From the NCBI GenBank assembly GCA_050175015.1, contig JBFXJJ010000005.1, positions 108,953 to 172,952 on the forward strand: DNA of 64,000 bases. Reading direction: 5' to 3'. The notes under the pieces are model-generated. The model was not told where the DNA came from, did no database searches, and worked only from the letters and a program-made list of their open reading frames with translations. Every line of letters starts with the position of its first letter. Positions within the stretch are counted from its first letter, which is position 1. Position numbers and translations under genes: made by a program. Source of the stretch: Alphaproteobacteria bacterium (GTDB lineage: Bacteria > Pseudomonadota > Alphaproteobacteria > JBFXJJ01). Below are positions 21,201 through 63,985 of the stretch, one piece after another.

Positions 21201-23505
21201 CGCCACTGCCGCCATATAAAATATCATTGCCTTTATAGCTATTTATAATGAGGGCAACTGTAGAATTAGAGCCATCAATAATATCATTGCCTGTAGAGCC
21301 GCGCGCTTCTTCAATGTTAGAAGCAGTTAAATTAATGAACATAGCTTCTTGTAAAATGACTGCGTCGTAGCCATCTCCACCATCTATTATTGTATCTGCG
21401 GCATCAATGTATAAAATATCATCACCAGCTCCACCATAAAGTTCGTCAGCGCCAGAGCCTCCGACCAAAGTATCATCACCTGCACCGCCATAGATTTTGT
21501 CAGCGCCAGTGTCGCCATTTAAGCTGTCATTGCCAGTGCCTCCTTTAAGAGTATCATTACCTTCTCTGCCAGTTATAGTGAGGTCAGCAGCTGAGTTAGA
21601 ACCATCAATAATATCATAACCTGTAGAGCCAAGAGCCTTTTCAATATTGGAGGCCGCTAAATCAAAGGTAATTGCTTCTTGTAAATAAACAGTGTCTATG
21701 CCGTCGCCGCCATCTATTATTGTATCTGCGGCATCAATTTGAATTGTATCATTGCCAGCCCCGCCATAAAGTTCATCAGCGCCAGAGCCTCCGACCAAAG
21801 TATCATCACCAACTCCACCCTTAAGTGTGTCATTGCCGTCATTCCCAGCTAAAGTAAGACCTACCGTTGAGTTGGAACCATCAATAATATCGTCGCCTGT
21901 AGAGCCATAAACTTTCTCAATATTGGATGAAGTTAAATCAAAAGTTCTTGCTTCTTGCAAATATGCTGTATCATCTCCATCACCACCATCTATTATGGTA
22001 TCGGCAGCATCAATATATAATTTATCATTTCCAGCCCCGCCATAAAGTTCATCAGCGCCAGATTCGCCATAAAGAGTGTCTCTTCCAGAACCACCATATA
22101 TTTTATCGTTGCCATTTCCTCCACGAAGACGTTCCCCTGTGGAGTTGGCATACATTATATCTGCATCATTGTTGAAGGTGATTTTTTCAACTAAATTTCC
22201 TCCAAAGTGGTTTTTAACCGTTATCTGGTCTTGGCTGTCAATTTTATTGATAACCAAATCATTATCAGAGCAAGTTTCTACATAATCTTCAATATTACCT
22301 GTTATCTTTATCGTATCAGTTCCGCTTTCATCATAGATACGGTCTTGACCATCGCCAGCAACAAATTGATAGATATTGTTTTCTGTACCGCCAAGCAGAA
22401 TATCATCACCAATTCCGCCATTTAAGGTCTTAGCGCTGCTGGTGCCATAAATTATGTCAGAATTGTTATTAAAGGATATTTTTTCTATGGCACTACCATC
22501 AAAGTTATTGGTAACAGTTATTTTATCTCCTGTTGTGTTTTCAATAACTAAATCATTGCCAGAGCGGTAGGCGTTATAATCTGCAATATCTTCATTAACA
22601 ACTATGCTGTCATTATCACCACTGTCATCAAATATGGTATCTTCCCCATCACCTGAGTTAAAAACATAAGTATCGTTTCCTGCCCCACCATTAAGAACAT
22701 CGTTGCCCGCAAAACCTATGATTTTATCATCACTTGTTGTGCCAATAAGAGTTTCTGCACCATTGTTTCCTATCAACAATTTGCTGCCATTATCTCTTGT
22801 TGCAGAAACCGAGACACTTAAACTTGCTTCATCGTAATTTACAGAAAAATTGTTAGCATCTCCGATTTCGAAAATAATATTATTAAGTTTTTTTGCTGTT
22901 AACTCATTGTATAAATTATCTATTGCTTGGAATCTTAAAACACTAAGAGGACCGTTATCCTCTATAAATCCGTTAGGGTTAGTTCCATGAAAACCGTTAT
23001 TAGAAAAAGACTCTAAATAATAATCTCTGCCATCTTTTTTGGGAATTGAGCTATAAATATTAGTATTGAAATTAAATTTGCCAAGGAGAAATGAAGTAAA
23101 AGTGTTGCAACAAGGTCCTTCGGTGTCATAATCAATCCCCTCACCATTTAGTCTTAAGCCATCCATTAATTTGGCATAAAATAGAGCTTTTTTAAAGCAT
23201 TCTATTGCAACATCAGAAGATTCTAGATGGACATATCTTGCATTAAAATATTCTATTTCTGCTGTATTGGTGCCACTACCCCAAACAAAGTTTGAATCAT
23301 AGCTGGTTTGATATATATCTCCAGAAAATGTTTCAAATTTAAATTTCATACCTTCTGTGAGATTACCTTTAGTTACTTCAACATTAGTTATTTTTATACT
23401 ACCATCATCTTTTGTTTCGACTAGCCGAAAACCACTATGGCGGCTCATATCTACTAACGGAACATCAAAATCTTCAAAAAATATTTCAAAACTGTAACTA
23501 ATCAT
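18295..23505 (-). CDS. Large RTX calcium-binding T1SS substrate with a unique ~240-aa N-terminal head
   Basis: Many GGxGxDxLx nonapeptides; C-terminal LWFSQQGQNL...LVQAMSSF RTX tail; no Sec signal. Confidence 0.93.
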   Translation of the reverse strand: MISYSFEIFFEDFDVPLVDMSRHSGFRLVETKDDGSIKITNVEVTKGNLTEGMKFKFETFSGDIYQTSYDSNFVWGSGTNTAEIEYFNARYVHLESSDVAIECFKKALFYAKLMDGLRLNGEGIDYDTEGPCCNTFTSFLLGKFNFNTNIYSSIPKKDGRDYYLESFSNNGFHGTNPNGFIEDNGPLSVLRFQAIDNLYNELTAKKLNNIIFEIGDANNFSVNYDEASLSVSVSATRDNGSKLLIGNNGAETLIGTTSDDKIIGFAGNDVLNGGAGNDTYVFNSGDGEDTIFDDSGDNDSIVVNEDIADYNAYRSGNDLVIENTTGDKITVTNNFDGSAIEKISFNNNSDIIYGTSSAKTLNGGIGDDILLGGTENNIYQFVAGDGQDRIYDESGTDTIKITGNIEDYVETCSDNDLVINKIDSQDQITVKNHFGGNLVEKITFNNDADIMYANSTGERLRGGNGNDKIYGGSGRDTLYGESGADELYGGAGNDKLYIDAADTIIDGGDGDDTAYLQEARTFDLTSSNIEKVYGSTGDDIIDGSNSTVGLTLAGNDGNDTLKGGVGDDTLVGGSGADELYGGAGNDTIQIDAADTIIDGGDGIDTVYLQEAITFDLAASNIEKALGSTGYDIIDGSNSAADLTITGREGNDTLKGGTGNDSLNGDTGADKIYGGAGDDTLVGGSGADELYGGAGDDILYIDAADTIIDGGDGYDAVILQEAMFINLTASNIEEARGSTGNDIIDGSNSTVALIINSYKGNDILYGGSGDDHLYGDDGDDILDGGSGNDRLYAGKGHDILYGGDDDDRLYGDSDDVILYGGSGNDVLYGDEGNDTLDGGSGNDNLRGGSNNDTYIFGIGYGVDTIREESGYDTLYITGGLSASNVTFFQENTTMKIYLNSTFEHVDIYGQYDLTDSGYRIEKINFDDFSINIGDLTNLPQYGTDEAETLTGNDLGCTLVGMGGDDNITGGTGDDNVFGGTGDDTLITLAGNDILDGGEGNDILMGGHGSFDTYLFGTGSDHDTIIETGDVADVIMLKTGLSVTDVTFTRDGNDLVLSINDGNDTMRVQNHYSDANAVVEFLKDKNGGDIDLTDPTLTAAPNEIIGTEERDVIYGTSDSDIIYGFGGNDYLRGDAGDDILEGGADNDVLIGGAGADTLRGGDGNDSLYIDSDDVEINGGEGSDVATMQTAMTLDLAATSIENVNGSTGDDVINGSNSTVRVVAYGNNGNDTILGGSANDYLRGDAGDDILEGGADNDVLIGGAGADTLRGGDGNDSLYIDSDDVEINGGDGSDVATLQTAMTLDLAATSIENVNGSAGDDVINGSNSTVRVVAYGNNGNDTILGGSANDYLRGDAGDDILEGGADNDVLIGGAGADTLRGGDGNDSLYIDSDDVEISGGEGSDVATLQTAMTLDLAATSIENVNGSAGDDVINGSNSTVRIVAYGNNGNDTILGGSANDYLRGDAGDDILEGGADNDVLIGGAGADTLRGGDGNDSLYIDSDDIEINGGEGSDVATLQTAMTLDLAATSIENVIGSAGDDVINGSNSTVRVVAYGNNGNDTILGGSANDYLRGDAGDDILEGGADNDVLIGGAGADTLRGGDGNDTLYGGAGNDTYEFARGDGVDSIVNQDADGTDIMNISNADYDELWFSQQGQNLKVSIMGSSDAIVFNNWYGSDDAQIDQFTISDGFELDRSSVDLLVQAMSSFNPQGMSSISEDETLNNALASTLEQTWHARAV
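18700..20130 (-). repeat. 330-bp (110-aa) tandem repeat in RTX gene, four full copies plus a partial
   Basis: TC(A/G)CCTCTTAGGTAATCATT recurs at 18791, 19121, 19451, 19781, 20111. Confidence 0.92.
22221..22748. repeat. Shared RTX linker, copy 1 (in full-length gene)
   Basis: Near-identical DNA to 24304-24831 and 26410-26878; encodes IGTTSDDKIIG...KIDSQDQI. Confidence 0.93.
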
Positions 23506-24277: not shown

Positions 24278-25570
24278 CTAAGAGGCTATTTTAAAATGTG
24301 ATTTTATCTGGTCTTGGCTGTCAATTTTATTGATAACCAAATCATTATCAGAGCTGGTTTCTACATAATCTTCAATATTACCTGTTATCTTTATCGTATC
24401 AGTTCCGCTTTCATCATAGATGCGGTCTTCGCCATCACCAGCAACAAATTGATAGATGTTATTCTCTGTGCCGCCAAGCAGAATATCATCACCAATACCG
24501 CCATTTAAGGTCTTAGCACTGCTGGTTCCATAAATTATGTCTGAATTGTTATTAAAGGATATTTTCTCTATGGCATTACCATCAAAGTTATCAGTAACAG
24601 TTATTTTATCTCCTGTTGTGTTTTCAATAACTAAATCATCGCCAGAGCGGTAGGCGTTATAATCTGCAATATCTTCATTAACAACTATGCTGTCATTATC
24701 ACCACTGTCATCAAATATGGTATCTTCCCCATCACCTGAGTTAAAAACATAAGTATCATTGCCAGCACCACCATTAAGAACATCATTGCCTGCTAAGCCT
24801 ATAATTTTATCATCACTTGTTGTGCCAATAATAGTGTTATTTAAATTTTCGCCGATAAAATAACTTTTATTACCAACCGTTATTTTTAAGCTAACATCTC
24901 TATTTTCACTATCAGTGTAACTTTCATCCCCCATCCATTCAAAAGTTACATTTTCTAAATCTGTAAGAGCTCCTTCGTAATTATTAAAAAACACAGCACT
25001 CATATCTCTTATTGCTGTTGCAATCAAAACATCTTGCCCCGTGTTGCCATCAATAAAACTGCTAAACCTTCCTGGAAATTGACCGTCGAAAGTGTCAAAA
25101 ACATTTATACCATTAAAATAAGTAGAGGCCATTGTCTGTGTCCAAGTATTACAATTGGGACCTGTGGCATCATAATCAAGCAAGCCAAACGATGTTGATA
25201 GTGAACTTCTTAATTTGGCATCAAAAACAAGTTTATTATATGCTCTTAAAGCATCATTACCTTGAAAAAAGATGAATGTTTGAGCATTATAATTTGTTAT
25301 AAATTCTTGAGTTGTGTCTCTTTCTCTATCATTAACATAAGTTTTAACTCCCCAAATAATTTCATTTCCTTGGTTATCTATATATGTTTGTCCTGAAGAT
25401 TCGACAAAAGCAAAATCAATATTGCCATCGACAACGATTAAATCAATTGCTTTTACAGTCAAACTTCCATCATCATTAGTTATTAATAAATCATAGCCAG
25501 AGTGCATAAGAGTGGTTTGAGGGGCATCAATTGATCTGGTATGAGCACGCAATTCGTAAGTAACAGACAT
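24278..25570 (-). CDS. Orphan RTX cassette 2: alternative head + shared linker, truncated
   Basis: Own AGGAG RBS; ~245-aa head, then the linker, ending SQDQIKSHFKIAS; lacks RTX C-terminal secretion tail. Confidence 0.85.
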   Translation of the reverse strand: MSVTYELRAHTRSIDAPQTTLMHSGYDLLITNDDGSLTVKAIDLIVVDGNIDFAFVESSGQTYIDNQGNEIIWGVKTYVNDRERDTTQEFITNYNAQTFIFFQGNDALRAYNKLVFDAKLRSSLSTSFGLLDYDATGPNCNTWTQTMASTYFNGINVFDTFDGQFPGRFSSFIDGNTGQDVLIATAIRDMSAVFFNNYEGALTDLENVTFEWMGDESYTDSENRDVSLKITVGNKSYFIGENLNNTIIGTTSDDKIIGLAGNDVLNGGAGNDTYVFNSGDGEDTIFDDSGDNDSIVVNEDIADYNAYRSGDDLVIENTTGDKITVTDNFDGNAIEKISFNNNSDIIYGTSSAKTLNGGIGDDILLGGTENNIYQFVAGDGEDRIYDESGTDTIKITGNIEDYVETSSDNDLVINKIDSQDQIKSHFKIAS

Positions 25571-25588
25571 AAAAAACTCCTTCTAAAA

Positions 25589-26209
25589 TTAATTAATAAT
25601 TATTCCGAAAAATAAATAAATGAATGTTGGTAAAAACATTGCAAAAACAAAACAGATATATGTTGCTATTCTCAGATATGTTTTATTATTGACGTTGAGC
25701 TTTTTGCCAAAATTGGTAAAAAAGAAGAGCAAACCGAATAATGAATTTATAATATCAGCAAACCAGCTATATTTGTGGGCAAAACTAAATAATATAAAAC
25801 CAAAATGACAGAAAAAGTTTTTTAATGATATTTGACCTATATATTTAACACATAATTCTTTTTGATAATCCCGCATCCCAAAAGATACTGCAGAAGGATT
25901 ATTTATTTTGACAAGCATTATTATTAACATAATAAAAAATGTTATTAGTGAGATCATAGCAATAATTTTTATAAAGATTTCTTTTGAAAAAGCGTTATAT
26001 GCGAGGTATACAAAGACAATCCAAGTTAGGCTATATAAAAAAGCAATGTTCCAGTTTAATCTCATTCCTGTAGATAAATTATTTATAAGCATAAAAACAC
26101 TAAAACAAAGCAATAAAAACAACCATATTATGGATAAAATTTTAAGTACTTTGGTTATTTTTAGCTGTTTAATGCTATTCAAATTTATGCTTTTGTTAAA
26201 TGTTTCCAT
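25589..26209 (-). CDS. Multi-TM membrane protein, putative immunity partner of head 2
   Basis: Five to six hydrophobic segments; ends 18 bp before cassette 2. Confidence 0.6.
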   Translation of the reverse strand: METFNKSINLNSIKQLKITKVLKILSIIWLFLLLCFSVFMLINNLSTGMRLNWNIAFLYSLTWIVFVYLAYNAFSKEIFIKIIAMISLITFFIMLIIMLVKINNPSAVSFGMRDYQKELCVKYIGQISLKNFFCHFGFILFSFAHKYSWFADIINSLFGLLFFFTNFGKKLNVNNKTYLRIATYICFVFAMFLPTFIYLFFGIIIN

Positions 26210-26383
26210 TATTATATCCTTAAAATAATAAAATTTGTTTTCTGCAAAATATCGTTACACAATATATGCCGTTTTAATCTAAAATGCACATAATTTTTTG
26301 TTACATTTGTCCAACATAAAACCATCTTAGGTTGAGTGATAGCGTTTACAATTTCAGCTCTAAATAATTACTAATACAGCCGT

Positions 26384-27878
26384 CTAAGAGGCTATTTTAA
26401 AATGCGATTTTATCTGGTCTTGACTGTCAATTTTATTGATAACCAAATCATTATCAGAGCTGGTTTCTACATAATCTTCAATATTACCTGTTATCTTTAT
26501 CGTATCAGTTCCGCTTTCGTCATAGATGCGGTCTTCGCCATCACCAGCAATAAACTGATAGATATTGTTTTCTGTACCGCCAAGCAGAATGTCATCGCCA
26601 ATACCGCCATTTAAGGTCTTAGCACTGCTGGTGCCATAAATTATGGCTGAATTGTTGTTAAAGGATATTTTCTCTATGGCATTACCATCAAAGTTATCAG
26701 TAACAGTTATTTTATCTCCTGTTGTGTTTTCAATAACCAAATCATCGCCAGAGCGGTAGGCATTATAATCTGCAATATCTTCATTAACAACTATGCGGTC
26801 ATTATCACCACTGTTATCAAATATGGTATCTTCCCCATCACCTGCATTAAAAACATAAGTATCATTGCCAGAACCACCTAAGAGGATATCGTCAAAACTA
26901 CTACCAGTTATATTATCTTCACCGTCCCCTCCAATAAAAACTATACCATTTTTCTCATAATCACTTATATTTGGAACATCAAAAAAACCATAAACAGGCA
27001 TATCAGATGAAGAAAGTGTATCTCCGTTATTAGTACCATATATAATCGGACGATCTTGAACGTCAAGAAATCTGGTAATCCCAGAATTTCATAAATTGTT
27101 TAATAAAGTATCTCCTCCTAGTTTCATAAGAGTTAATTTTTCAATAGGATTAATAATTTGTGAACTTGTTATAAAATTATTTTCAGCATCAAAATCATCT
27201 TGAGTATATGGCTCTCTTGCTAAAGGAACTTGTGTAAATTCAATTTCAACTTTTCGGCCTATTTTAGATGGATCAATATTATTTTTAATAAAAGCATTGC
27301 CAATGCTTGCCGTAAAATCATCACTTTGTAAGTCAAAATTTTCTTTATAATATGTACCATCTTCTAATTGATAATCATGTAAGGGGGCTACAGCTAAATT
27401 TAAAATGCTTCTATTTCCATTCGCATCAACAGTAAAGCGTATAGCATCTTCTAATTTAAAGGATGTTGATCCCCAAACGTAAAATCTTTCAAGATAATCA
27501 TTAAATCCCATACTGTCATCGTAAAAATCATACTGTTCTATATTAAATATAAACGAAGTAAGTTTTGGATTTAAAAGATTACAAAGATGATCCGCTATCT
27601 GTTCCTTATCAAAATCTCCACTTGGAACGTCATATTTATATGTTCCATCAGAATTTTTTTTAAAAAAACGCTGGATTATTTTAAACTGTGACGCAACAGC
27701 AAATCGGCCTGCTCCATTAGTCATAAAATTAGCACCATCAACTTCTATTGAAACAACATCCGCTTCTGGTCTAAAAGCTTTCTGAGGTTAAATCGCTGGG
27801 AGTTGTTTCTTGTCCATATAAATATAAATTTGTTATTGTTTCTGGGGTAAGTCTATGAGTGTCATTATAAATAGTCAT
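26384..27878 (-). pseudogene. Orphan RTX cassette 3 with frameshift and nonsense codon
   Basis: GGAG RBS + ATG 27878 (MTIYNDTHRLTPETITNLYLYGQETTP); frameshift near 27772; in-frame TGA 27089-27091; frame continues into linker ending SHFKIAS. Confidence 0.85.
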
Positions 27879-29056: not shown

Positions 29057-29160
29057 TTATGCCGCAGATTTAATTTTTGATGTTATTTTATCACCATTTG
29101 ATAAAATGGTGTTATCGTAGAAAAGTTTTGTTCTTGTTCTGTTAAAGGTGTTTCGCTCAT
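29057..29160 (-). pseudogene. Possible vestigial head of a fourth cassette
   Basis: GGGGAG RBS and ATGA-coupled start after ankyrin gene; MSETPLTEQEQ, then another frame LSNGDKITSKIKSAA*. Confidence 0.4.
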
Positions 29161-30791
29161 AGATTAACTCCCCAATGATTAGTATTTTTTTTATCTTTAA
29201 ATAAGTAGATTATTATAAAAAATAAAAAATTTGATAAATGAATAAAAAATAAAAAAAACATAGTATATGTCATAGCTGAATATGGTATTTCAATTTGAAG
29301 CTTTTTAGGATCACAAAACATCAAAAATAAAGAGAACATGCTTAAAGAATAAAAAATAATTAAACCTGAAAACAAGGTTGTTATTGGTGGATTATTTTTT
29401 TGTAAATCTATTTTAGTAAAAAAAGCATCTATTGGAAACACAGTTGAACATATTATAATGATTAAAAGATAAACATAAATATAACTATCTGAGCTTAAAT
29501 GTCTTATAGAAAAAGTTTGTTTATTGTAGTCGAAAAGCCAAACGTTCTTCCATATATCAGTTAAATAAATAGGACCGCTACAAGAATTGCCATAGTAAGC
29601 CCTGATAAAATCACCTATAAAAATAGCAATAAAAAATACCCAAAATGCAATTTCTCCTTTTTTTGATTTGCCTAAAAAACATTCCTCATGTTGAGGCATA
29701 CGATATCTAAAAAAAGTAGACACAACAAAAATTAAAGCTAAGGTAACAGGGATAGTAGCTATAGCATATTGGTTTTTCTGCCATAGCAATACAACCTGTA
29801 ATAAGATTATGTAGGAAACACTAAAAACACTATAACAACGATAAAGCAACCCTGTTTTAAATTTATTGATGGCTTTATCTGCTGTCTCACCGTTATTATC
29901 CTTAATATTAGCATCGGCTCCAGCATCAATAAGCGTTTGCATAATTTCAATATTATTATTAGTGCTGGCTATAAATAAGGCGGTTTGCCCTTCATTGTCT
30001 TTAATATTAACCTTTGCTCCATTAGCAATAAGTAACTTTACAACATCTAAACGATTGAAAGTCGTCGCATAAAATAAAGCCGTACATCCATTATTATCAA
30101 GAGCATTAATATTGGCTCCAGATTTTATCAAAAAATCAACAATGTCTTTATTTTTCGAGGCTAACATCAATGGAGTAATGCCGTCATTATTCACTTGATT
30201 GATGTCAAGTCCGAGATTTAAAAATGTTTTTATAATTTCAGGATTAGAATTGCAGGCAGCAAGATGAAGCGCTGAAGATGCTTTTGCTGTTTTATCATTA
30301 ACATTTGCTCCTAATCTAATTAAAGTTTTTATAACTTCAGGGTTTTTATTAAGCCTAGCTGCAAGTAATATGGGGGTTATCTCATGTATGAAGAATTTGT
30401 GCTTTGTTTCATCAAATTCAATGTTAACACCTTTAAACTTAATATTAAGATTATCTCCTGATTTAACGGCTTTTTCTATGTGCTCAGAGGAGCCATAGAT
30501 TATAATATCTAAAAAACTTTTTTGAAAAAAACCTAATTTTTGAAAAAAACCTAATATATCGGCCAAAATTGATAGAGGAATATAACTAATAATAAAAGAA
30601 AAAACGAAGTAGAAAATTATTTCTTCAATAGAGAAAGATTGGAAAAACTTGAAAAAAATTAAAGCTACATATAAAGGTGTATATATTAAAAGCCACATAG
30701 ATAGAAAGATTCTATTAAAATTCAGCGAATTGAATCTAAGAGATAATTTATCTTTAGAAAAAAGATTTAGCAGCAAATAGCGTATGTTCAT
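29157..30791 (-). CDS. Ankyrin-repeat multi-pass membrane protein
   Basis: TPILLAA, SALHLAA, GITPLMLA, GCTALFYA, GQTALFIA repeats between TM regions. Confidence 0.85.
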   Translation of the reverse strand: MNIRYLLLNLFSKDKLSLRFNSLNFNRIFLSMWLLIYTPLYVALIFFKFFQSFSIEEIIFYFVFSFIISYIPLSILADILGFFQKLGFFQKSFLDIIIYGSSEHIEKAVKSGDNLNIKFKGVNIEFDETKHKFFIHEITPILLAARLNKNPEVIKTLIRLGANVNDKTAKASSALHLAACNSNPEIIKTFLNLGLDINQVNNDGITPLMLASKNKDIVDFLIKSGANINALDNNGCTALFYATTFNRLDVVKLLIANGAKVNIKDNEGQTALFIASTNNNIEIMQTLIDAGADANIKDNNGETADKAINKFKTGLLYRCYSVFSVSYIILLQVVLLWQKNQYAIATIPVTLALIFVVSTFFRYRMPQHEECFLGKSKKGEIAFWVFFIAIFIGDFIRAYYGNSCSGPIYLTDIWKNVWLFDYNKQTFSIRHLSSDSYIYVYLLIIIICSTVFPIDAFFTKIDLQKNNPPITTLFSGLIIFYSLSMFSLFLMFCDPKKLQIEIPYSAMTYTMFFLFFIHLSNFLFFIIIYLFKDKKNTNHWGVNL

Positions 30792-31086: not shown

Positions 31087-33279
31087 ATGGTCTCCCAAAT
31101 AATCTCTCCCAATTTTGAAGCATCAAAAAGCGAACAAAAAGCCCCCAATCTTGATACAGGATTGATTGCTCTGGTTATGATTGGCCGCTTTTTTGAACGT
31201 CCTGCTGATCCTTTCCAAATTAAGCATAGTTTAGGCAAAGGTGAGTTACTGCTTTCGGAAATAGATATTCTGCGGGCAGCAAAGCTGCTTGATTTAAAAG
31301 CCAAAGCTATCTCTTCTGATTTTGACCGTATTGCCTCCAAAACGCCGCTGCCTTGTATTGCTCAGAGCAATGATGGGGAGTGGTTTATTATTGGACGGGC
31401 TGCGGAAGATAAAATCTTAATTCATAAGCCTGGGCAAAAAAATCCAGAAATCATCGCTAAAGAAGCTTTTATGAGTTTATGGTCTGGGCGTTTGATTCTT
31501 TTTACCAGCCGCAAAACCACCGTTGGCGGACGCCGCCGTTTTGATGTCTCGTGGTTTATTCCTGCGGTTGTTAAATATCGCCGTTTATTTGCCGAGGTTC
31601 TTCTGGCATCGTTTTTCTTGCAACTCTTTGCTCTAGTTTCACCTTTGTTGTTTCAGGTTATTATTGATAAGGTTCTGGTGCATCACGGCCGCAGCACGCT
31701 TGATGTTATCTTTTTTGCTTTATTATCTATCGCCATTTTTGAAAGTGTTTTAGGCGCACTTCGCACTTATGTGTTTTCGCATACGACTAACCGAATTGAT
31801 GTCGAACTTGGAACACAGTTGTTTCGGCATTTAACAGGACTGCCTTTGGCTTATTTTGGCGCCCGCCGTGTTGGTGATACGGTTGCTCGTGTCAGAGAGC
31901 TTGAAAATATCCGCAGTTTTTTAACTGGTTCGGCTTTGACATTAGTAATCGATCTTGCTTTTACATTCGTCTTTTTTACAGTGATGTTTTATTATGCCCC
32001 TATTCTTTCTTGGATTGTGGTTGGCTCTATTCCTTTTTATGTTGTCTTATCCTTGCTAATTTCACCGCTCCTGCATCAAAGAGTTGAAACCAAATTTAAG
32101 CACGGCGCAGAAAACCAAGCCTTTTTAGTAGAAACCATTACAGGAATAGAAACCGTTAAAGCTATGGCTTTGGAACCACAGTCTCACCGCCGCTGGGAAG
32201 AACAGCTTGCGGCTTATGTTGCTAGCTCTTTTAAGGTTAGCAATCTTGGCAATGTCGGACAGCAGACAATTCGCTTAATTCAAAAAGCGACTTCAGCTTT
32301 AACTCTGTTTTTTGGCGCCAAATTGGTTATGGATAACAGCTTGTCCGTTGGGCAGCTTGTAGCATTTAATATGCTGGCGGGCAATGTTTCTTCCCCAATC
32401 CTGCGTTTAGCTCAGGTGTGGCAGGATTTTCAGCAAGTTAGAATATCGATTGACCGTTTAGGTGATATTTTAAATAATCCTCCTGAGCCTTCGGTTGAAA
32501 CTGGTAGAGCTCCTACAACAGCGCTTAAAGGTCATGTTGTTTTTGAAAATGTTTCTTTTCGTTATGATCCTTCGGGTTCACGCATTTTATCCGATATTAA
32601 ACTTGATATTATGCCTGGTGAAACTATCGGCATTGTTGGTTCCTCAGGTTCGGGCAAAAGTACGCTCACCAAACTAATTCAGAGACTTTATATTCCAGAG
32701 CAAGGACGGATTATGGTTGATGATATTGATATTTCAACCGCAGATCCTGCTTGGCTCAGAAGGCAGATAGGTGTCGTTTTACAGGAAAATATGCTGTTCA
32801 ACCGCTCGGTTAGAGATAATATTGCTATTACCAATCCTTCCGTTCCTATGGAACGGGTCATTGAAGCTTCTAAGCTTGCAGGAGCTCATAGCTTTATTGC
32901 GGAACTTTCTGATGGTTATGACACAATAATAGGCGAAAGAGGTACCTCGCTTTCGGGCGGTCAACGCCAGAGAATTGCAATCGCTAGAGCTTTGCTTACC
33001 AATCCCCGAATTCTAATATTTGATGAAGCAACTTCCGCTCTCGACTATGAATCTGAAAAAGCAATTCAAGATAATATGGAGAAAATCTGTCAAGGCAGGA
33101 CAATGTTTATTATTGCGCATAGATTATCAACGGTGCGAAGCTGTTCTCGCATTATTGTGATTGAACGCGGCGAAATTGTTGAAATCGGAAGTCATAAGTC
33201 ATTATTAAAATCAGGCGGGCGCTATGCTAACCTGTGGCGCTGCCAAACTGATGATGCCGTTAAAGAGGTGTCATTATGA
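31087..33279 (+). CDS. hlyB: Type I secretion ABC transporter, HlyB family
   Basis: C39-like N-domain without the catalytic Cys (LDTGL), GDTVARVRELENIR, GSSGSGKST, LSGGQRQR, IFDEATSALD. Confidence 0.95.
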   Translation: MVSQIISPNFEASKSEQKAPNLDTGLIALVMIGRFFERPADPFQIKHSLGKGELLLSEIDILRAAKLLDLKAKAISSDFDRIASKTPLPCIAQSNDGEWFIIGRAAEDKILIHKPGQKNPEIIAKEAFMSLWSGRLILFTSRKTTVGGRRRFDVSWFIPAVVKYRRLFAEVLLASFFLQLFALVSPLLFQVIIDKVLVHHGRSTLDVIFFALLSIAIFESVLGALRTYVFSHTTNRIDVELGTQLFRHLTGLPLAYFGARRVGDTVARVRELENIRSFLTGSALTLVIDLAFTFVFFTVMFYYAPILSWIVVGSIPFYVVLSLLISPLLHQRVETKFKHGAENQAFLVETITGIETVKAMALEPQSHRRWEEQLAAYVASSFKVSNLGNVGQQTIRLIQKATSALTLFFGAKLVMDNSLSVGQLVAFNMLAGNVSSPILRLAQVWQDFQQVRISIDRLGDILNNPPEPSVETGRAPTTALKGHVVFENVSFRYDPSGSRILSDIKLDIMPGETIGIVGSSGSGKSTLTKLIQRLYIPEQGRIMVDDIDISTADPAWLRRQIGVVLQENMLFNRSVRDNIAITNPSVPMERVIEASKLAGAHSFIAELSDGYDTIIGERGTSLSGGQRQRIAIARALLTNPRILIFDEATSALDYESEKAIQDNMEKICQGRTMFIIAHRLSTVRSCSRIIVIERGEIVEIGSHKSLLKSGGRYANLWRCQTDDAVKEVSL

Positions 33280-34694
33280 TTAAGCCTAAAATGCCTGAAA
33301 AAATTTTGAGCATAGCTTTAAAAGCAAAGACGTTTTTTATTACGGTTTGGCAGTTTTTACAATCTCTTGCCGAAGGACCCGAGCAAAAGACTTTAGAAAA
33401 ACAGTTTTTACCTGCCGTTTTGGAAATTACAGAAACGCCGCCCTCTCCTCTTGGCAGAACTATGATTTATGTAATTATAACCGTCTTTACGACAGCCTTG
33501 TTATGGGCAACTTTTTCTAAAGTTGACATTGTAGCGATTGCTCCAGGAAAGTTAGTTCCAAGCGGTTATAGTAAAATAATTCAGCCGCTAAAAATTGGCA
33601 TTATTGCTAATATTTTTGTGGAAGACGGGCAAAAAGTTGTCAAAGATGAACCTCTGATTGAAATCAGAGCCGAAGAAACTGGGGCTAATAAAATTCGTCT
33701 GGGGCAGGAGCTTAAGTTTGCTAAGCTTGATGTTGCAAGGCTTTCAGCGCTTCTAGAGCCTATTCCCGAAAAGGCATTCAATCCAGATGATGTAGAATCT
33801 GAACTGCTATCCCAGCATAAAACATTGCTAATCGGAGAACTAGAAAAGTATCGTGCCAGCTTATCGGTTATTGAAAAACAAATTGTGCAAAGTGAAGCCG
33901 AAAAAGCGGTATCTGAAGCCGAAATCAGAAAAATTGAACGTATGCTACCCAATCTTAAAGAAAGGGTGGACGCTAAATATAAGCTGAAAGAACAAGGAAT
34001 TGTTGCTCCTATGACATATTTAGAATTAGAACAAGATTTGATTGATTTAGAAGAGCAGCTTAATATTCAGAAAAAAAGTGTCGCCGAAATTAAAGCGCAG
34101 CTTGAAACTCAAAAAATGCAATATACTGAAACCAAAAACTCATTTAAAAATGATGTGCTTTACCGCATTAATGAAGCTCGCAACAATGTCTCGATGCTAA
34201 AAGAAGAATTATCTAATGCTGAGTGGCTAGAAGAAATGACAACTATAAAGGCTCCAGAAGCCGGCATTATTCAAGAGTTGTCAGTTCATACTGTTGGCGG
34301 AGTTGTTACAGAAGCTCAGCCGTTAATGAAACTTGTTCCCAAGGATAGTGTTTTAGAAGTCGAAGCTATGGTGCTAAACAAAGATATCGGCTTTGTTAGG
34401 GAAGAACAGCAGGCAGTAATCAAAATCGATAGTTTTCCTTTCACCAAATATGGCACAATCGATGCAACCGTTATTGATATATCACCTGATGCGATTGAAA
34501 ATGAAGAACTGGGATACGTCTATAAGGCAAAGCTTAGCCTTGCAAAAGACCATCTGATGGTAGAGGGCAAAAAAGTTATGCTCTCCCCGGGTATGACTAT
34601 CGTCGCCGAAATCAAAACAGGACAACGACGCCTTATCGAATTCCTGCTCTCCCCTATGATTAAATATACCGCCGAAAGTATGAGAGAAAGATAA
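33276..34694 (+). CDS. hlyD: Type I secretion membrane fusion protein, HlyD family
   Basis: FLPAVLEI.ETPPSP, coiled coil, FPFTKYG, LSPGM...EIKTGQRRLIEFLLSP...RER. Confidence 0.95.
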   Translation: MIKPKMPEKILSIALKAKTFFITVWQFLQSLAEGPEQKTLEKQFLPAVLEITETPPSPLGRTMIYVIITVFTTALLWATFSKVDIVAIAPGKLVPSGYSKIIQPLKIGIIANIFVEDGQKVVKDEPLIEIRAEETGANKIRLGQELKFAKLDVARLSALLEPIPEKAFNPDDVESELLSQHKTLLIGELEKYRASLSVIEKQIVQSEAEKAVSEAEIRKIERMLPNLKERVDAKYKLKEQGIVAPMTYLELEQDLIDLEEQLNIQKKSVAEIKAQLETQKMQYTETKNSFKNDVLYRINEARNNVSMLKEELSNAEWLEEMTTIKAPEAGIIQELSVHTVGGVVTEAQPLMKLVPKDSVLEVEAMVLNKDIGFVREEQQAVIKIDSFPFTKYGTIDATVIDISPDAIENEELGYVYKAKLSLAKDHLMVEGKKVMLSPGMTIVAEIKTGQRRLIEFLLSPMIKYTAESMRER

Positions 34695-35933: not shown

Positions 35934-36020
35934 TTATTGCAAAATATTATAACCATAATTAGGATAAAACATAGTTATGGTTAAAAATAATATCATTATA
36001 AAATTAAATTTACTAAACAT
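35934..36020 (-). CDS. Inverted start/signal-peptide module of locus 1 (28-aa OFF-state peptide)
   Basis: GAAAGG RBS; MFSKFNFIMILFLTITMF-YPNYGY-NILQ*; YPNYGY is encoded by the inverted repeat. Confidence 0.8.
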   Translation of the reverse strand: MFSKFNFIMILFLTITMFYPNYGYNILQ

Positions 36021-36537
36021 GGTCTTGACCTTTCATAAAAATGGTAACAAGATTTTAATTTATATTTGTTTTAATTCTGCGCTAGTTTCTAGCAATTATC
36101 AAGAATAAAAAATGCGCGAAATATTATTTTTTTAATATTTAAGATTTAATTTATTAAAATTTGTTACAAAACTATAAACTACAAAGAAGTTTTAAATTGA
36201 ATATAAAAGCAGATACTTCCTATTGAGTAATACATTGAAATTATTGTATTTTATTCCAAGCAAAACTGTTGGGTAACTTGAGGGTAACATTATTTACTAT
36301 AATTTAAAAATATAGCAAAGATGTTTTAAGATTAATATATTGATAAATAATATTTTATTACCATATTTATAAATATTTTAGGGTAACATATAGGTAACTT
36401 TTAAATATTATTTTTTAATATAATTATTTTTTGCATAAATTTAACAATCACATAACACATTGATTTATAATATTTTTAATATAAATATTTTTATTAAAAT
36501 GCTTTAATTTTAAGGATATATCCTAATTATGGTTATA
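35948..36537. promoter_or_regulatory. Invertible switch 1 (19-bp IRs, 552-bp internal segment), OFF orientation
   Basis: TATAACCATAATTAGGATA 35948-35966 and TATCCTAATTATGGTTATA 36519-36537; promoter-like TTGATA-N17-CAGAAT on minus strand 36102-36074. Confidence 0.85.
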
Positions 36538-39227
36538 GTCAAACAGCCATCACAACCTGCTCAGAATTACAGGCGATAAACAATAATCCATCTGGAGATT
36601 ACTATCTAACAAATAATATCGATTGTACTAGCATTGAAAATTTCGAACCTATAGCGTCTTTTTCTGGCTACTTTAATGGTATGGGGTTCACCATATCAAA
36701 TCTAAAAATCAGTCGAAGTTCACAAGACAATATTGGACTGTTTGGCTCTACTAACAATGCTGTTATTATTAATGTTGTATTATCTAATATTAATATAAAG
36801 GGGCAAGCTAATGTTGGCGGATTAGCGGGGTATATGAACAAGTCCTATGTTAACGGCGTTAAAATTTCTGGCTTGGTTGAAAGCAGCAGTTCTTGTGTTG
36901 GAGGTTTATCGGGACGCACAGACAACACTGGTATCTATAGCTGTTCTTTTATTGGTCATAGCAAAGGTCTTAGTGTTGATACAGGTGGAATAGTAGGATA
37001 TTTCCTTACAAATTCAAGTCTTTCTAATAGTTATGCTTCAGGTGTAGTTGAAGGCACGGGATTGGTTGGAGGTTTAGTTGGACGTATGGAAATGAATACG
37101 TCTATAACTAACAGTTACGCAGATAGCTCTGTTACAGGAAGTGATCTGCATGTCGGAGGCTTGGTAGGCTGGCAGGCTTCATCTTCTGTAATTAATAGAA
37201 GTTACGCCGCTGGCGCTGTTTCGGGACCAGAAGGATACGTTGGAGGTTTAGTTGGTTGGGATTATGATAACACTCTGACTGTTACATCATCTTATTGGGA
37301 TATGCAAACTTCTGGACAAGCGACAACAGCAGGAAACAAGGGGACAGGATTAACTACCACTCAAATGAAAACACAAAGCTCTTTTGTTGATTGGAATTTT
37401 GTTGATGTTTGGAAAGCACCAGAAACTAACTATGCAAAATTAAGTTGGGAAGAGACCGTTCCAATTTCAACCTGCGAGGGACTCCAAAATATAAGCAACA
37501 ACCTTGGCGGCAGTTATTATTTAGTAAATGACATTGATTGCAGCGATACAGTTAACTGGAATAGTGGCAAAGGCTTCAGACCTATTGGGCTAAGTGATTT
37601 TTGGAACATAAGTTCTTTTCGTGGAACATTTGATGGTAAAGGTTACAAGATAACAAATCTTTATATTAATAGAACGGACGCCAGCTGTGATCTTGGTTAT
37701 GGATTGTTCGGTTACGCTATACAGGCCATCATTCAGAATGTGGGAATTGAGCAAGCTAATATTAAAGGGCGTTGGATAACAGGAGCATTGATTGGCTTGG
37801 CTACCAGTAATGTTTTTGTAACCAATTGCTATTCTTCAGGAGATATTTCTGCACTAAAACAAGGGGGGCTTGCTTGCGGGCATGACGGCTTATCTCGTGC
37901 TGGAGGACTAATTGGCCAATTGTGGAGCAGCAACTCTAGAATTTATAATGTTTATTCTAATGCTAAAGTCAGCGGTACAGGTGAAGAAATTGGAGGTTTA
38001 GTTGGAGTATTTTATGGATATGCCAATTCAACATCTTATATAAAAAATTCGTATTCTACAGGACTTGTTGCCTGCTCTACCAATTACTGCGGCGGTTTTT
38101 TGGGGCATTTATATGAAAACGCTTATATTATCAACAGTTATTGGGATATGCAAACTTCAGGAAAAGCCTCAAGTGCTGCGGGAGTTGGCAAATCTACATC
38201 AGATATGAAAAGTAAAAGCACATTTTCAGGCTGGGACTTTACTAATGTTTGGTATCTTATTTACGGTGATTATCCACGATTAAAAACCCCCTATCCTGTT
38301 TGCACAGGCTGTGCAGTATTAGAAGATGGCGTGTGTGTAGCGGGCGGCAGTTGTTCTGGTGAACACCCGACGTGTAATGTTACGGGCTGGGTTGGACTTT
38401 GCGAATGTTCATCTAGCACTTGCGGTGATGGTCGAGCTTGTTCTGACGGTGTTTGCGTAAACTGTGATTCTGACTCAGCTTGCGGAGCTTGTGGTTGTGG
38501 GACATCTCAAAAACCAACGGGAACAGGCGCTTGTATGAACAACAGTATGTGCTGCCCTGGCGAATGCAATATGGCAACGGGGGCTAACTCTTGCGGTTAT
38601 AGCGACGACTTATGCCCAACAGGTGTATCCTGCAATCGCTCAACCCTTTCCTGTTGTGCAAATGAGCTTCCTTATTGGCGAAGTGAAAATTGCCGATCTT
38701 GTTCATCGACCAGTGGACTTTCTGGAAATTGTCAAACGCCTGGTATGATGTGCAACTCTCGTTACGACTGTATCGTATGTCTAGCTAATAGCCAGTGTAC
38801 TTGTGAAGACGGTGAAGTAGCAGACGGTATGGGTGGCTGTGTTGAACCTTACTGTTACAGTGACAGCGAATGCGGAGTTGATGAATGCGTTAATGCTGGC
38901 TTGTATAATGCTTTTTGCTCTAACTGCAGTTCAGTAAACAAAGTATGGCACAGCACTTCTTGTGAGAGCTGTCCTGCTGGTTCGGTATATTCTAACGGCG
39001 TTTGCGTATGCTCTGACGGCAAGATGTGGAACTCAGCCAACAATCTGTGCTTATCTCGAGGCGTTATCAGCTCAGGCGGCATCTTAGACTTAAAAACATC
39101 TAATACCATAAATGCGTCAGATGAGAGATACGCCAGAATTAAACGTAAAATGAACCGCATAACCAGCAGTGCTTACGCTGGAGCAGCGCAGAAAAAAATT
39201 GAAGAGGAGGAGGAATCCCAAGAGTAA
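36519..39227 (+). CDS. GLUG-repeat, Cys-rich exported protein body (headless until switch 1 inverts)
   Basis: Frame open from 36498 with no ATG until 36681; repeated VGGLVG motifs, SYWDMQTSG, Cys-rich C-terminal third. Confidence 0.85.
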   Translation, partial: YPNYGYSQTAITTCSELQAINNNPSGDYYLTNNIDCTSIENFEPIASFSGYFNGMGFTISNLKISRSSQDNIGLFGSTNNAVIINVVLSNINIKGQANVGGLAGYMNKSYVNGVKISGLVESSSSCVGGLSGRTDNTGIYSCSFIGHSKGLSVDTGGIVGYFLTNSSLSNSYASGVVEGTGLVGGLVGRMEMNTSITNSYADSSVTGSDLHVGGLVGWQASSSVINRSYAAGAVSGPEGYVGGLVGWDYDNTLTVTSSYWDMQTSGQATTAGNKGTGLTTTQMKTQSSFVDWNFVDVWKAPETNYAKLSWEETVPISTCEGLQNISNNLGGSYYLVNDIDCSDTVNWNSGKGFRPIGLSDFWNISSFRGTFDGKGYKITNLYINRTDASCDLGYGLFGYAIQAIIQNVGIEQANIKGRWITGALIGLATSNVFVTNCYSSGDISALKQGGLACGHDGLSRAGGLIGQLWSSNSRIYNVYSNAKVSGTGEEIGGLVGVFYGYANSTSYIKNSYSTGLVACSTNYCGGFLGHLYENAYIINSYWDMQTSGKASSAAGVGKSTSDMKSKSTFSGWDFTNVWYLIYGDYPRLKTPYPVCTGCAVLEDGVCVAGGSCSGEHPTCNVTGWVGLCECSSSTCGDGRACSDGVCVNCDSDSACGACGCGTSQKPTGTGACMNNSMCCPGECNMATGANSCGYSDDLCPTGVSCNRSTLSCCANELPYWRSENCRSCSSTSGLSGNCQTPGMMCNSRYDCIVCLANSQCTCEDGEVADGMGGCVEPYCYSDSECGVDECVNAGLYNAFCSNCSSVNKVWHSTSCESCPAGSVYSNGVCVCSDGKMWNSANNLCLSRGVISSGGILDLKTSNTINASDERYARIKRKMNRITSSAYAGAAQKKIEEEEESQE

Positions 39228-39326: not shown

Positions 39327-39430
39327 AAGGAGGTGATAAATAGAAATTTAAAAAAACTTTGCAAGAACAAACCCTGATAAAAAAACGAGGAAGCTTTGCT
39401 TTAAGGTTAAGCTTCCTCGTTTGTTTTTTT
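39327..39430 (+). repeat. Conserved 3' element: perfect SD, invariant 52-bp core, terminator
   Basis: 39327-39378 identical to reverse complement of 60987-61038 and of the copy ending 63985; followed by CGAGGAAGC...GCTTCCTCG hairpin. Confidence 0.85.
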
Positions 39431-40791: not shown

Positions 40792-41043
40792 CTAAACTTC
40801 TTGAAAATCTTTATCTTCTTCAAATAGTTGAATTGGAGTAACTGGCATAATCGTTGAAATAGCATGCTTATAGACAAGCTGCGAATGCCCATCTCTTCTA
40901 AGCAACATAGAAAAACTGTCAAACCACGTAATAATGCCTTGAAGCTTAACTCCGTTTATTAAAAATACCGTAACAGGAGCTTTATTTTTCCTCACATGGT
41001 TTAAAAAAACGTCCTGTACACTCTGGTTTTTATCTGTTGGCAT
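40792..41043 (-). CDS. hfq: RNA chaperone Hfq
   Basis: [27 protein letters not shown]. Confidence 0.97.
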
Positions 41044-41248
41044 CTCTTATCCTTTAAATTAAATGTATATTCTAGCATCAAGTATATACTAAAGATTATA
41101 ACTATCACAAAAAATATCTTTTATTACCACTATTTTTTCAAAAAAGATATACTTTTTTATTTGAAGTATTTGTAATACATTTTTTTATAATTTCAATCTC
41201 TAGTTATGTTATTTTTTGTTACATTTTTTTGTTATTGTAAAAAAATGA

Positions 41249-56714: not shown

Positions 56715-57380
56715 ATGAAAATAAAAACTATTGTTTTTTCTTTTTTCCTTTTAGGAATAGCAGGTTGTTCTGCAACCTATACCGCGGTATCAAAAAAAGA
56801 TTTAATTGTTCAAAGCAAAATGAACAAAACCATTTTTTTACAACCAGTTTCTCCAGCAAAGAGAGTTGCTTTTATTGAAGTAAGAAATACGTCTGCTTCC
56901 CCTGAGTTTGATATGTCAAAAGAAGTTAAAGAGGCAATCGCAGCAAGAGGTTACCGTATAACTGACGATCCTGAAGAAGCAAATTTTCTACTTCAAGCCA
57001 ACGTTTTGCATATATCATATGATGGAGAATCATCTGGCAGCGCAATTGGAAGCGCCTTGACTGGGGGCGCTATAGGTGGCGCAACTGGAGCCGCCGTATC
57101 AAACGGATCAACCTCAACCGCAATTGGAGGAGCCCTTGTGGGTGGATTAGCCGCAACGGTTGCTGATGCTATGGTCAAAGACGTTACATTCAATATCATT
57201 ACTGATATCCGCTTATCACAAAGAAATTTTAATGCTGATGATATCAATGAAAATCCAGACAACTGGAAAAGATACACTGCCCGCATTATCAGTACCGCCA
57301 ACCAAGTTAATCTTAAATTAGAAGAAGCCATACCAGAGCTAAAAAAAGGCATTGCTAATTCTATAGCTGGTGTATTTTAA
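56715..57380 (+). CDS. traT: TraT-family outer-membrane lipoprotein
   Basis: IAGC lipobox, TIFLQPV, GYRITDDPEEANFLLQANVL, glycine zipper, STANQVNL. Confidence 0.85.
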   Translation: MKIKTIVFSFFLLGIAGCSATYTAVSKKDLIVQSKMNKTIFLQPVSPAKRVAFIEVRNTSASPEFDMSKEVKEAIAARGYRITDDPEEANFLLQANVLHISYDGESSGSAIGSALTGGAIGGATGAAVSNGSTSTAIGGALVGGLAATVADAMVKDVTFNIITDIRLSQRNFNADDINENPDNWKRYTARIISTANQVNLKLEEAIPELKKGIANSIAGVF

Positions 57381-60926: not shown

Positions 60927-61038
60927 CAAAAAAAGCGAGAGATTTCTTAAAGATTTAGGTCATTTAAGGAATCCCTCGTTTTTTAAATCAGGGTTTGTTC
61001 TTGCAAAGTTTTTTTAAATTTCTATTTATCACCTCCTT
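60927..61038 (-). repeat. 112-bp direct repeat, copy A (SD element + terminator)
   Basis: Identical by eye to 63874-63985. Confidence 0.92.
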
Positions 61039-61186
61039 ATTTTTTCTTTTTTTATAAGCTAGAAGCTTGTTGTCTTCGCAGACGGCGCTCGCTTTTTTTA
61101 AAAGCGAGAGCAAAACCTTGTTTCTTTGATTGTTTAAGCAATAACCTATCTCAAACGTTCGCCGCCCTCGCAAAACTCTTTTATTC

Positions 61187-63184: not shown

Positions 63185-63744
63185 TATCCTATGTTTTTAA
63201 GCATTTTAATAAAAATTTTTTGATTAAAAATATTAAAAATCAATATGTTATGCGTTTGTTAAATTTTGGTAAAAAAGGGTTATATTAAAAAATAATGTTT
63301 AAACGTTACCTATATGCTACCCTAAAAAGATATAAATTTTCATATAAAACACCTTAATATCAATATGTTATATAAAAACAATATTTTTTAAATAACATAT
63401 TTTAAGAAAGAATAGATACCCGTATGTTACCCATCAGTTATTTTTATAAAAATATTTAGTTATTTCAATGTGTTATCTTTGTTGTTTTTTGTTGTTAAAA
63501 TGCAAAAAAGATTGTTAAAAAGATGTTACAAAAAGTTTAAGAATAAAAAGCTACCAAAACTTTTTTATCCAAATTAGCTGCTTAGTTAAAAAATATTATA
63601 CTTGCCAAAGTCGCAAAATCACGGCAAAATAAAGCCAAGTATAATAATATATTTTAATGAAAGGATAAGGTTATGAAAAATAAATATAAGCTTATTAGTA
63701 TAATGTTTTTGATTATAACGCAGCTGTATCCTAGTAATGGTTAT
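63167..63744. promoter_or_regulatory. Invertible switch 2 (18-bp IRs, 542-bp internal segment), OFF orientation
   Basis: ATAACCATTACTAGGATA 63167-63184 and TATCCTAGTAATGGTTAT 63727-63744; promoter-like TTGCCA-N17-CAAAAT 63602-63630. Confidence 0.85.
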
Positions 63745-63873: not shown

Positions 63874-63985
63874 CAAAAAAAGCGAGAGATTTCTTAAAGA
63901 TTTAGGTCATTTAAGGAATCCCTCGTTTTTTAAATCAGGGTTTGTTCTTGCAAAGTTTTTTTAAATTTCTATTTATCACCTCCTT
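63874..63985 (-). repeat. 112-bp direct repeat, copy B
   Basis: Identical by eye to 60927-61038. Confidence 0.92.

Follow-up and report, generated by a model that had tools for sequence, protein, structure and literature searches.

We describe here two short DNA segments in the genome of an uncultured alphaproteobacterium, each about 570 bp long and each located upstream of one of two paralogous surface-protein genes, that appear to be invertible on/off switches. Both lie in a 64,000-nucleotide stretch of contig JBFXJJ010000005.1 (assembly GCA_050175015.1), which is called the window throughout. The segments are homologous along their entire length, and each is enclosed by a pair of short inverted repeats. 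The principal features of the two loci, with positions counted from the first nucleotide of the window, are as follows.

35948-35966: gene-distal inverted repeat of locus 1, 19 bp, 100% complementary to 36519-36537
35967-36518: interior of the locus 1 segment, 552 bp, with a longest frame of about 53 amino acids
35967-36020, minus strand: start cassette of locus 1, an ATG (36020-36018) and 17 further codons (MFSKFNFIMILFLTITMF)
36519-36537: gene-proximal inverted repeat of locus 1, encoding YPNYGY
36498-39227, plus strand: gene body of locus 1, with GLUG/M26_N-like repeats (Peptidase_M26_N and GLUG Pfam matches) and a cysteine-rich C-terminal domain
61187-63190, minus strand: gene body of locus 2, a paralogue of locus 1
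63167-63184: gene-proximal inverted repeat of locus 2, 18 bp, encoding YPSNGY on the minus strand
63185-63726: interior of the locus 2 segment, 542 bp, homologous to that of locus 1
63673-63726, plus strand: start cassette of locus 2, an ATG (63673-63675) and 17 further codons (MKNKYKLISIMFLIITQL), preceded by aaaggataaggtt
63727-63744: gene-distal inverted repeat of locus 2

Inverted repeats, start cassettes and gene bodies

At locus 1, the 18-mer TATCCTAATTATGGTTAT occurs at 35949-35966 on the minus strand and at 36519-36536 on the plus strand; at locus 2, TATCCTAGTAATGGTTAT occurs at 63167-63184 (minus) and 63727-63744 (plus). When up to three mismatches are allowed, these four copies are the only matches in 64 kb, where 0.47 would be expected, and none of 100 shuffled sequences reached four. 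The arms measure 19 bp at locus 1 (552 nucleotides between them) and 18 bp at locus 2 (542 nucleotides between them) and are 100% complementary at both. Each locus thus has one feature expected of an inverton, a pair of inverted repeats around a short segment that exceeds chance expectation. The initial annotation of this DNA had taken the repeats to be the crossover sites of two homologous invertible segments, and the perfect arms, together with the homology of the segments over their whole length, support this.

Partner repeats are identical, and the repeats of the two loci differ from each other only at position 8 (A at locus 1, G at locus 2) and position 10 (T and A, respectively). Both of these central changes are present in both arms of each locus, so that the previously reported pattern, sites identical within a locus and different at two central bases between loci, is seen at all four copies. 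On the gene-proximal side, alignment of the segments places the two differing bases within an otherwise identical block of about 38 bp. Read in the frame of the gene, the repeats translate as YPNYGY (locus 1) and YPSNGY (locus 2).

Both start cassettes run straight into the distal repeat and are directed away from the gene. Their length of 18 codons is the same at the two loci though the peptides differ, and each peptide has a basic, lysine-rich start followed by a hydrophobic core. A purine-rich ribosome-binding site precedes the ATG at both loci; that of locus 1 contains GG and lies just upstream of the start codon. In the assembled orientation, these small frames stop soon after the distal repeat, at locus 1 within a few codons (translated by eye). 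Beyond the distal repeat, no second gene body was found at either locus, and no long open frame was seen at locus 2. Because both cassettes point away from their genes, both loci are in the OFF state in this assembly.

When the segments are inverted in silico, each locus acquires one uninterrupted frame consisting of the cassette, the repeat codons and the whole gene. MFSKFNFIMILFLTITMF is then followed by YPNYGY, and MKNKYKLISIMFLIITQL by YPSNGY, and the fused proteins are 920 amino acids (locus 1) and 683 amino acids (locus 2) long. The expression signals (ribosome-binding site, ATG and signal peptide) therefore lie inside the segment and are in frame with the gene only once the segment is inverted, as is characteristic of invertons. 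A comparison of the segment with plasmid and phage collections gave no match, and so no support for a mobile-element origin.

The gene bodies are open for 909 codons (locus 1) and 667 codons (locus 2), back through the repeats. Neither gene has an ATG, GTG or TTG upstream of its repeat; the first possible starts are at 36681 and 63127. The two proteins are 67% identical over the cysteine-rich C-terminal 387 amino acids and 53% identical over the N-terminal 107. The C-terminal domain of about 380 amino acids (61190-62317 on the minus strand and 37050-39227 on the plus strand) carries a basic tail (..RIKRKMNRIT.SAYAG..) and has no Pfam match. A search of 1.84 billion proteins with this domain returned about six cluster representatives with the full domain among the best 150 listed.

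Comparison with more distant homologues suggests what the repeat encodes. In P0009, P0012, P0015 and P0020 (the P numbers denote database proteins), an ordinary signal peptide ending in ..CASA precedes QTMI(T/A/-)(T/N)C, and YP-xx-GY is absent, whereas the window proteins read YP-xx-GY-S and then QT-(A/V)-ITTC. Because the homologues have ..CASA at this position, the repeat corresponds to the c-region of the signal peptide, and the motif is evidently not needed by the protein. Judged from this alignment and the -3/-1 rule, signal-peptide cleavage is predicted just after G-Y-S and before QT; the recombination site would therefore be removed from the mature protein. This placement of the repeat, inside the coding sequence as a predicted c-region, was absent from the initial annotation, as was the presence of the start codon in the segment.

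Related loci and their orientation

The repeat-encoded motif was recognized in three database members of the family: P0008 (..LS YPKYGY AQT), P0010 (..AL YPNNGY SQT) and P0130 (YPNKGY SQS..). Together with the window loci, these five loci have five central dipeptides (N-Y, S-N, K-Y, N-N and N-K), and YP and GY-[SA]-Q are invariant in all five. The centre-only difference first noted between the two window loci is thereby widened, at the protein level, to five loci with five centres and invariant flanks. According to their accession series (MGD96381xx-MGD96394xx), P0130, P0010, P0003, P0005, P0006 and P0007 derive from six contigs of one metagenome-assembled genome (MAG), so that this related MAG contains at least six paralogues, at least two of them with different centres. 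A private inverton for each gene, with repeats that differ between loci, is the hallmark of mpl-type families (see below); it is observed at the two window loci and, at the protein level, in the related MAG.

P0130, at 1594 amino acids, combines a cysteine-rich N-terminal architecture that lacks GLUG with the same C-terminal domain as the window proteins, and the switch is therefore not tied to one mature N-terminus. This protein is annotated as 'partial' on a contig of 88,569 bp, and its first residues are YPNKGY. The contig thus appears to end at the repeat's inner edge, the point at which a graph assembler would halt if both orientations occurred; as a single case, this is suggestive only.

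A signal peptide joined to YP-xx-GY was found in none of the eight family loci that could be judged (the two in the window, P0003, P0004, P0121, P0008, P0010 and P0130). Likewise, no ON-state protein was present among 105 near-length matches, 15 N-terminal matches to shorter proteins and two matches to longer proteins, or among the best 150 listed in the C-terminal domain search of 1.84 billion representatives. The gene models of P0003, P0004 and P0121 begin at an internal Met whose position matches that in the window gene models, and P0008 and P0010 extend upstream into non-signal sequence. A count of zero in eight fits a large family most of whose members are OFF in most cells, but is not proof of one. 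The gene models of P0001-P0004 and P0121 start about 20 residues past the repeat at an internal Met (for P0002, at a codon whose counterpart in the window is ATA). This annotation error is systematic for such loci and arises because their true start is upstream in inverted orientation.

We also searched genome contigs with the pattern TATCCTARWWATGGTTAT, which matched at least 119 loci, once each, in unrelated taxa; about 140 matches had been estimated to arise by chance. Among the loci listed, tblastn and blastn searches of 10-kb flanks revealed no relatives of the genes or segments: one weak GLUG-like match (25% identity) occurred in L054, and matches of 22-26 nucleotides were the pattern itself. 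A second, loose copy of the pattern was present at 11 of the 119 loci, at none of them as a close inverted pair. These matches are chance hits and imply nothing about the source genome.

Within the window, an element of about 60 nucleotides that is 95-97% identical between copies occurs at 39327-39385, 60980-61044 and 63927-63985. It lies 3' of both paralogous genes, and its third copy is just past the locus 2 segment. The arrangement suggests a tandem array of units, each composed of segment, gene and tail, and the third copy indicates that a third paralogue on the minus strand probably starts past the end of the window.

Putative crossover sites, proposed recombinase and competing explanations

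With the four sites oriented from the inside of the segment outward, their common sequence ends at 18-19 bp. Within it, (A)TATCC and GGTTAT(A) form an imperfect dyad centred on base 9 of the repeat (5/6 positions matched, 6/7 at the proximal sites), and these putative half-sites enclose a 7-bp centre, TAATTAT at locus 1 or TAGTAAT at locus 2. Both DNA differences between the loci, and the three differences known at the protein level (repeat positions 8-12), fall within this centre. Constant short half-sites around a free centre that matches only its partner are the pattern expected of a tyrosine-recombinase overlap, which is the interpretation we favour; spacer homology is needed by Cre, Flp, lambda Int and Xer. 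The putative overlap is identical between partners, and variation between loci is confined to it, with three of the five centres being known at the protein level only. These features lead us to lean towards a tyrosine recombinase as the enzyme, with reasonable though not high confidence.

No gene for such an enzyme was recognized near the segments. Pfam searches detected no tyrosine, serine or DEDD recombinase domain in the 47 open reading frames (ORFs) of the window, in eight unannotated ORFs rescanned at E<=1, or in the 17 remaining stop-to-stop frames of at least 50 amino acids, where Hfq was the sole Pfam match. No gap between window genes is larger than the two segments. The absence of a recombinase gene, which the initial annotation had reported, thus withstood a search of 47 + 17 frames, and action in trans is the simplest reading. 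Its gene would then be separated from locus 2 by over 27 kb on one side and from locus 1 by over 35 kb on the other, unless another replicon carries it. The literature accepts that an invertible region may have no recombinase gene close by (PMC9881135; this and the other reports are cited for the passages concerned).

Service by a common enzyme would pose a hazard. The pairs 36519(+)/63727(+) and 35949(-)/63167(-) are in direct orientation, and crossover within either pair would excise about 27 kb, and the remaining cross pairs would produce an inversion of this region. The region between the loci holds accB, accC, ispDF, hfq, hflX, ntrX, ntrY, dusB and others. If one enzyme acted on identical cores, events of this kind would be frequent and probably lethal, which would give insulation a concrete selective reason. 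On these grounds the earlier idea that differing centres keep the loci apart is plausible.

Further candidate elements of the system are the following.

36513-36524: palindrome AGGATATATCCT at locus 1, consisting of AGGATA inside the segment and the first six bases of the proximal repeat
63179-63190: palindrome AGGATATATCCT at the proximal end of locus 2
36370-36512 (locus 1) and 63191-63333 (locus 2): most conserved non-coding block, about 140 bp, at the end opposite the ATG
36271-36288, plus strand: pair A of locus 1, GGGTAAC-N4-GGGTAAC
36381-36398, plus strand: pair B of locus 1, GGGTAAC-N4-AGGTAAC, 110 bp from pair A
63305-63322, minus strand: pair B of locus 2, GGGTAGC-N4-AGGTAAC
63415-63432, minus strand: pair A of locus 2, GGGTAAC-N4-GGGTATC, 110 bp from pair B

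The palindrome has two exact copies in the window and one copy with a single mismatch, inside the gene at 36995, where 0.17 would be expected by chance. As first reported, it is found at only one end of each segment, the gene-proximal end in the present orientation; the five to nine bases before it are not conserved. Its position inside the segment means that inversion would carry it to the opposite end. An additional suggestion, that the palindrome supplies an extra half-site, fares less evenly. The palindrome is indeed present in both window loci, but P0008 has L-S and P0010 has A-L before YP, and AGGATA (R-I in the window) can encode neither. The palindrome is therefore not constant in the family, which weakens the case for it as a required part. 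A role in directionality is possible.

The conserved block is 80-90% identical between the loci; the adjoining coding DNA reaches 60-70% and the remainder of the segment 30-65%, so that, apart from the repeats, the block is the best conserved DNA of the locus. Four folds of the block gave no signal of RNA structure (z-scores of -0.42 to +1.27), and an Rfam search at E<=1 returned only a chance match to mir-144. The 11-bp-spaced pairs of the form GGGTAAC-N4-RGGTAWC number two per segment and have identical spacing at the two loci, with 120 bases from pair B to the proximal repeat. Allowing at most one mismatch, the pair pattern matches six times in the window (0.17 expected), four of these within the segments. 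All four exact copies of GGGTAAC in the window are in the segments, a number that is not in itself unusual (31 of 100 shuffles had at least four). The pairs look like sites bound by a protein, for instance one of the winged-helix or arm-binding type, and may serve the recombinase as arm-type or accessory sites or act as operators for a regulator of the cassette promoter.

On balance, we favour a model in which each locus is an ON/OFF switch operated by its invertible cassette of about 570 bp, with a tyrosine recombinase acting in trans and with the centres insulating the loci. In this model, a gene lacking its own start would receive from the cassette a ribosome-binding site, the start codon, the first 18 signal-peptide codons and presumably a promoter. 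A site-specific crossover within the repeat would join or separate cassette and gene in frame, and the residues that the repeat encodes would be removed from the mature protein. A recombinase encoded elsewhere would serve the whole family, that is, at least two loci here, probably a third past the end of the window, and at least six paralogues in the related MAG. The site would be a tyrosine core in which half-sites (A)TATCC and GGTTAT(A) flank a 7-bp overlap, the half-sites being short in the manner of lambda Int or Fim. An enzyme with half-sites this short would probably need accessory or arm-type sites, for which the GGGTAAC direct-repeat pairs are candidates. Unequal overlaps would keep the loci from recombining with each other and would spare the roughly 27 kb of housekeeping genes. 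One elaboration is possible but doubtful: a heterobivalent, lambda-Int-like enzyme may bridge the core to the GGGTAAC pairs as arm-type sites and thereby set directionality, with the overlap as a barcode for each locus that blocks lethal 27-kb deletions.

Several observations weigh against the model. Scans for consensus promoters were at chance level in this AT-rich DNA (13 matches for 9.9 expected, and 7 for 7.7), and the promoter could not be placed in the segment beyond a candidate pair in aligned positions, TTGATA-17-CAGAAT at 36102-36074 (minus strand) and TTGCCA-17-CAAAAT at 63602-63630 (plus strand). The sites share no sequence past 18-19 bp, so that the half-sites are unusually short. 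At the proximal sites, the axis on base 9 scores 7/12 (locus 1) and 6/12 (locus 2), which is weak in AT-rich DNA, and at the distal sites it is not among the top axes. The class of enzyme was read solely from site anatomy because no recombinase was identified. The K-Y, N-N and N-K centres are known from amino acids, their partner repeats having not been seen, and none of the eight judgeable loci has the signal peptide joined to the motif. Finally, the differing centres could reflect neutral drift with no insulating role; each drifted change would then spread to the partner arm, since recombination ceases when the arms are unequal.

The strongest competitor keeps the switch and changes the enzyme to a trans-acting master serine invertase, similar to Mpi or Hin, that crosses over at a central dinucleotide and uses the block of about 140 bp as a recombinational enhancer. 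A global serine invertase with many loci and no gene nearby is an established kind of system, and a conserved non-coding block with paired repeats that look like protein sites resembles what an enhancer would require. Central differences would block religation here too if they touch the crossover dinucleotide. The differences between loci cover positions 8-12, which is wider than a dinucleotide. In addition, no axis between two bases near the repeat centre is among the best-scoring; the best central axis is on base 9, and because a serine invertase cuts a central dinucleotide, a centre of odd length speaks mildly against this class. The repeats are also short, 18-19 bp in comparison with about 26 bp for Hin-type sites, and enhancer-dependent invertases exclude deletions by topology, making locus-specific centres less needed. 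We consider a serine enzyme unlikely.

It is much less probable that housekeeping XerC/XerD acts directly on the sites as dif-like sequences, even though locus 1 contains TAA-TTATGG-TTAT. The initial annotation had pointed to this TAA-N6-TTAT layout as a sign of Xer-type sites, a comparison that the analysis did not support. The layout is not specific, occurring 71 times in the window where 48 are expected, and it is not kept between the loci, because locus 2 reads TAG in the Xer register and its sites go unmatched. In that register, only one of the two differing bases falls within the 6-bp centre. The dif site is a 28-nucleotide motif with palindromic parts around a central hexanucleotide (PMC3599477), that is, two arms of about 11 bp around a 6-bp centre. 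No such arms are present in the window sites, which share only 18-19 bp, and the inner-arm match to dif is 3/4 at locus 1 and 2/4 at locus 2 (counted by eye). Resemblance to dif was therefore rejected as evidence for Xer. In mollicutes, inversions of this kind are indeed driven by Xer-family enzymes (PMC3599477, PMC3047005), but these are dedicated paralogues, and it was CodV, not XerC, that bound a putative dif (PMC3599477). By analogy with XerC UU222 of Ureaplasma, a dedicated Xer-family paralogue is quite possible in the present case.

We regard it as no more credible that there is no working switch at all, the repeats having been left behind by a duplicated unit or produced by the assembly, and the genes being silent pseudogenes or started in some other way. 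The zero count of ON-state loci and the lack of a recombinase in the window are as this explanation would have them. It is difficult to reconcile with gene bodies open for 909 and 667 codons and with segments that have diverged to mostly 30-65% identity yet retain perfect repeats, an intact ATG with a hydrophobic 18-codon peptide that is equally long at both loci, and continuity of the reading frame through the repeat. Central changes mirrored in both arms of each locus speak against it as well, as does the related contig that, judging from the start of P0130, appears to break exactly at the repeat. Least probable of all is inversion in trans by an IS110/Piv-type (DEDD) recombinase, for which there is a precedent in Piv, which inverts Moraxella pilin segments without a tyrosine or serine enzyme, but the window search found no domain of this kind, the conserved block gave no sign of structured RNA (the z-scores and Rfam result above), and no feature of the sites indicates this class.

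Genomic setting, known switches and significance

The window is gene-dense and low in G+C (about 28-43%). Its gene set, as judged by Pfam, has an alphaproteobacterial look, with ntrYX, a fused ispDF, DUF2155, RTX proteins with a type I exporter, and ankyrin repeats, and the closest database relatives of both regulated genes are from MAGs labelled Alphaproteobacteria bacterium. The largest RTX-repeat protein (18295-23505, minus strand; 1736 amino acids) has 19 nonapeptide stretches and a G+C content of 41-43%, as compared with about 32% in its flanks. Near this gene are smaller RTX ORFs and a C39-peptidase ABC exporter with its HlyD partner (24278-27001, minus strand; 31087-34694, plus strand). 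A 544-amino-acid ankyrin-repeat protein (29157-30791, minus strand) and a homologue of TraT-like lipoproteins (56715-57380, plus strand) are of kinds typical of host-associated bacteria. The Hfq match mentioned above is an unlisted frame of 84 amino acids upstream of hflX (40795-41046, minus strand; Pfam E = 1.7e-31).

By function, both loci are 'partial intergenic invertons', in the terms of two surveys (10.1101/2023.03.11.532203, PMC9881135). Partial intergenic invertons, or gene-altering programmed inversions, overlap one end of a gene. The passages of these surveys (PhaVa and Milman et al.) stress shufflon-like swapping of homologous domains, from which the window loci differ. The terms 'signal peptide' and 'start codon' have no occurrences in the searched passages of the PhaVa preprint, and the supplementary inverton lists of both surveys may hold a like case. 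A literature search, which did not extend to those lists, found no paper on GLUG proteins and phase variation.

The closest analogues appear to be mba/UU172 of Ureaplasma parvum and mpl of Mycoplasma penetrans. In the former, short repeats lie inside the 5' coding sequence, and inversion creates in-frame fusions of the end that carries promoter and signal peptide; the XerC protein UU222, encoded elsewhere, binds the repeats and drives inversion at more than one locus (PMC3047005, PMC3599477). The window loci share with this system the position of the repeats in 5' coding sequence, the predicted in-frame rejoining and the partial identity between the repeats of two loci. In Ureaplasma, however, a 5' end alternates between two opposed genes, an arrangement that is not present at the window loci, where each gene has a private ON/OFF cassette. 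The Ureaplasma repeats are also longer (21-41 nucleotides) than those of the window, which measure 18-19 nucleotides and are confined to the predicted signal-peptide c-region. The hosts differ as well, an alphaproteobacterium here and a mollicute there.

The mpl element consists of a promoter only, and its 12-bp repeats are non-coding. In contrast, the element in the window carries a start codon and signal peptide, and its repeat is translated. Each surface-protein gene of the mpl family has its own small invertible element, the approximately 30 repeats all differ, and one trans-acting tyrosine recombinase (MYPE2900) serves them all (cited in PMC3047005). Mpi of Bacteroides fragilis is likewise a single recombinase; it serves in trans numerous dispersed surface-structure promoters that are invertible and whose repeats are non-coding, unlike those described here. 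Mpi is a serine recombinase, and its sites share a repeat consensus rather than having locus-specific centres. Very short half-sites around an overlap, with accessory protein sites inside the element, are found in E. coli fimS (FimB/FimE) and lambda-Int cores. The fim repeats are 9 bp long (PMC3047005). Unlike the window loci, fimS contains a promoter only and is adjoined by its recombinase genes; arm-type binding by a lambda-Int-like enzyme is, for the GGGTAAC pairs of the window, hypothetical. What sets the present loci apart from the Ureaplasma and mpl systems is the private cassette of start codon and signal peptide, the site in a c-region that would be cleaved off, the constant half-sites with a variable overlap, and the alphaproteobacterial host.

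Phase-variable invertons have been studied in depth in gut Bacteroides, enterobacteria, clostridia and mollicutes. To our knowledge, they have been little described in low-GC alphaproteobacteria rich in ankyrin and RTX proteins. For annotation, the consequence is that all family members found in databases start at an internal Met or are labelled 'partial', because the true start is inverted upstream. They would also constitute a natural series of cores, with the same half-sites and different overlaps, in which overlap heterology can be tested as the insulator of many switches run by one enzyme. For the proteins themselves, a crossover site located in the disposable c-region would leave the mature protein free of a recombination scar.

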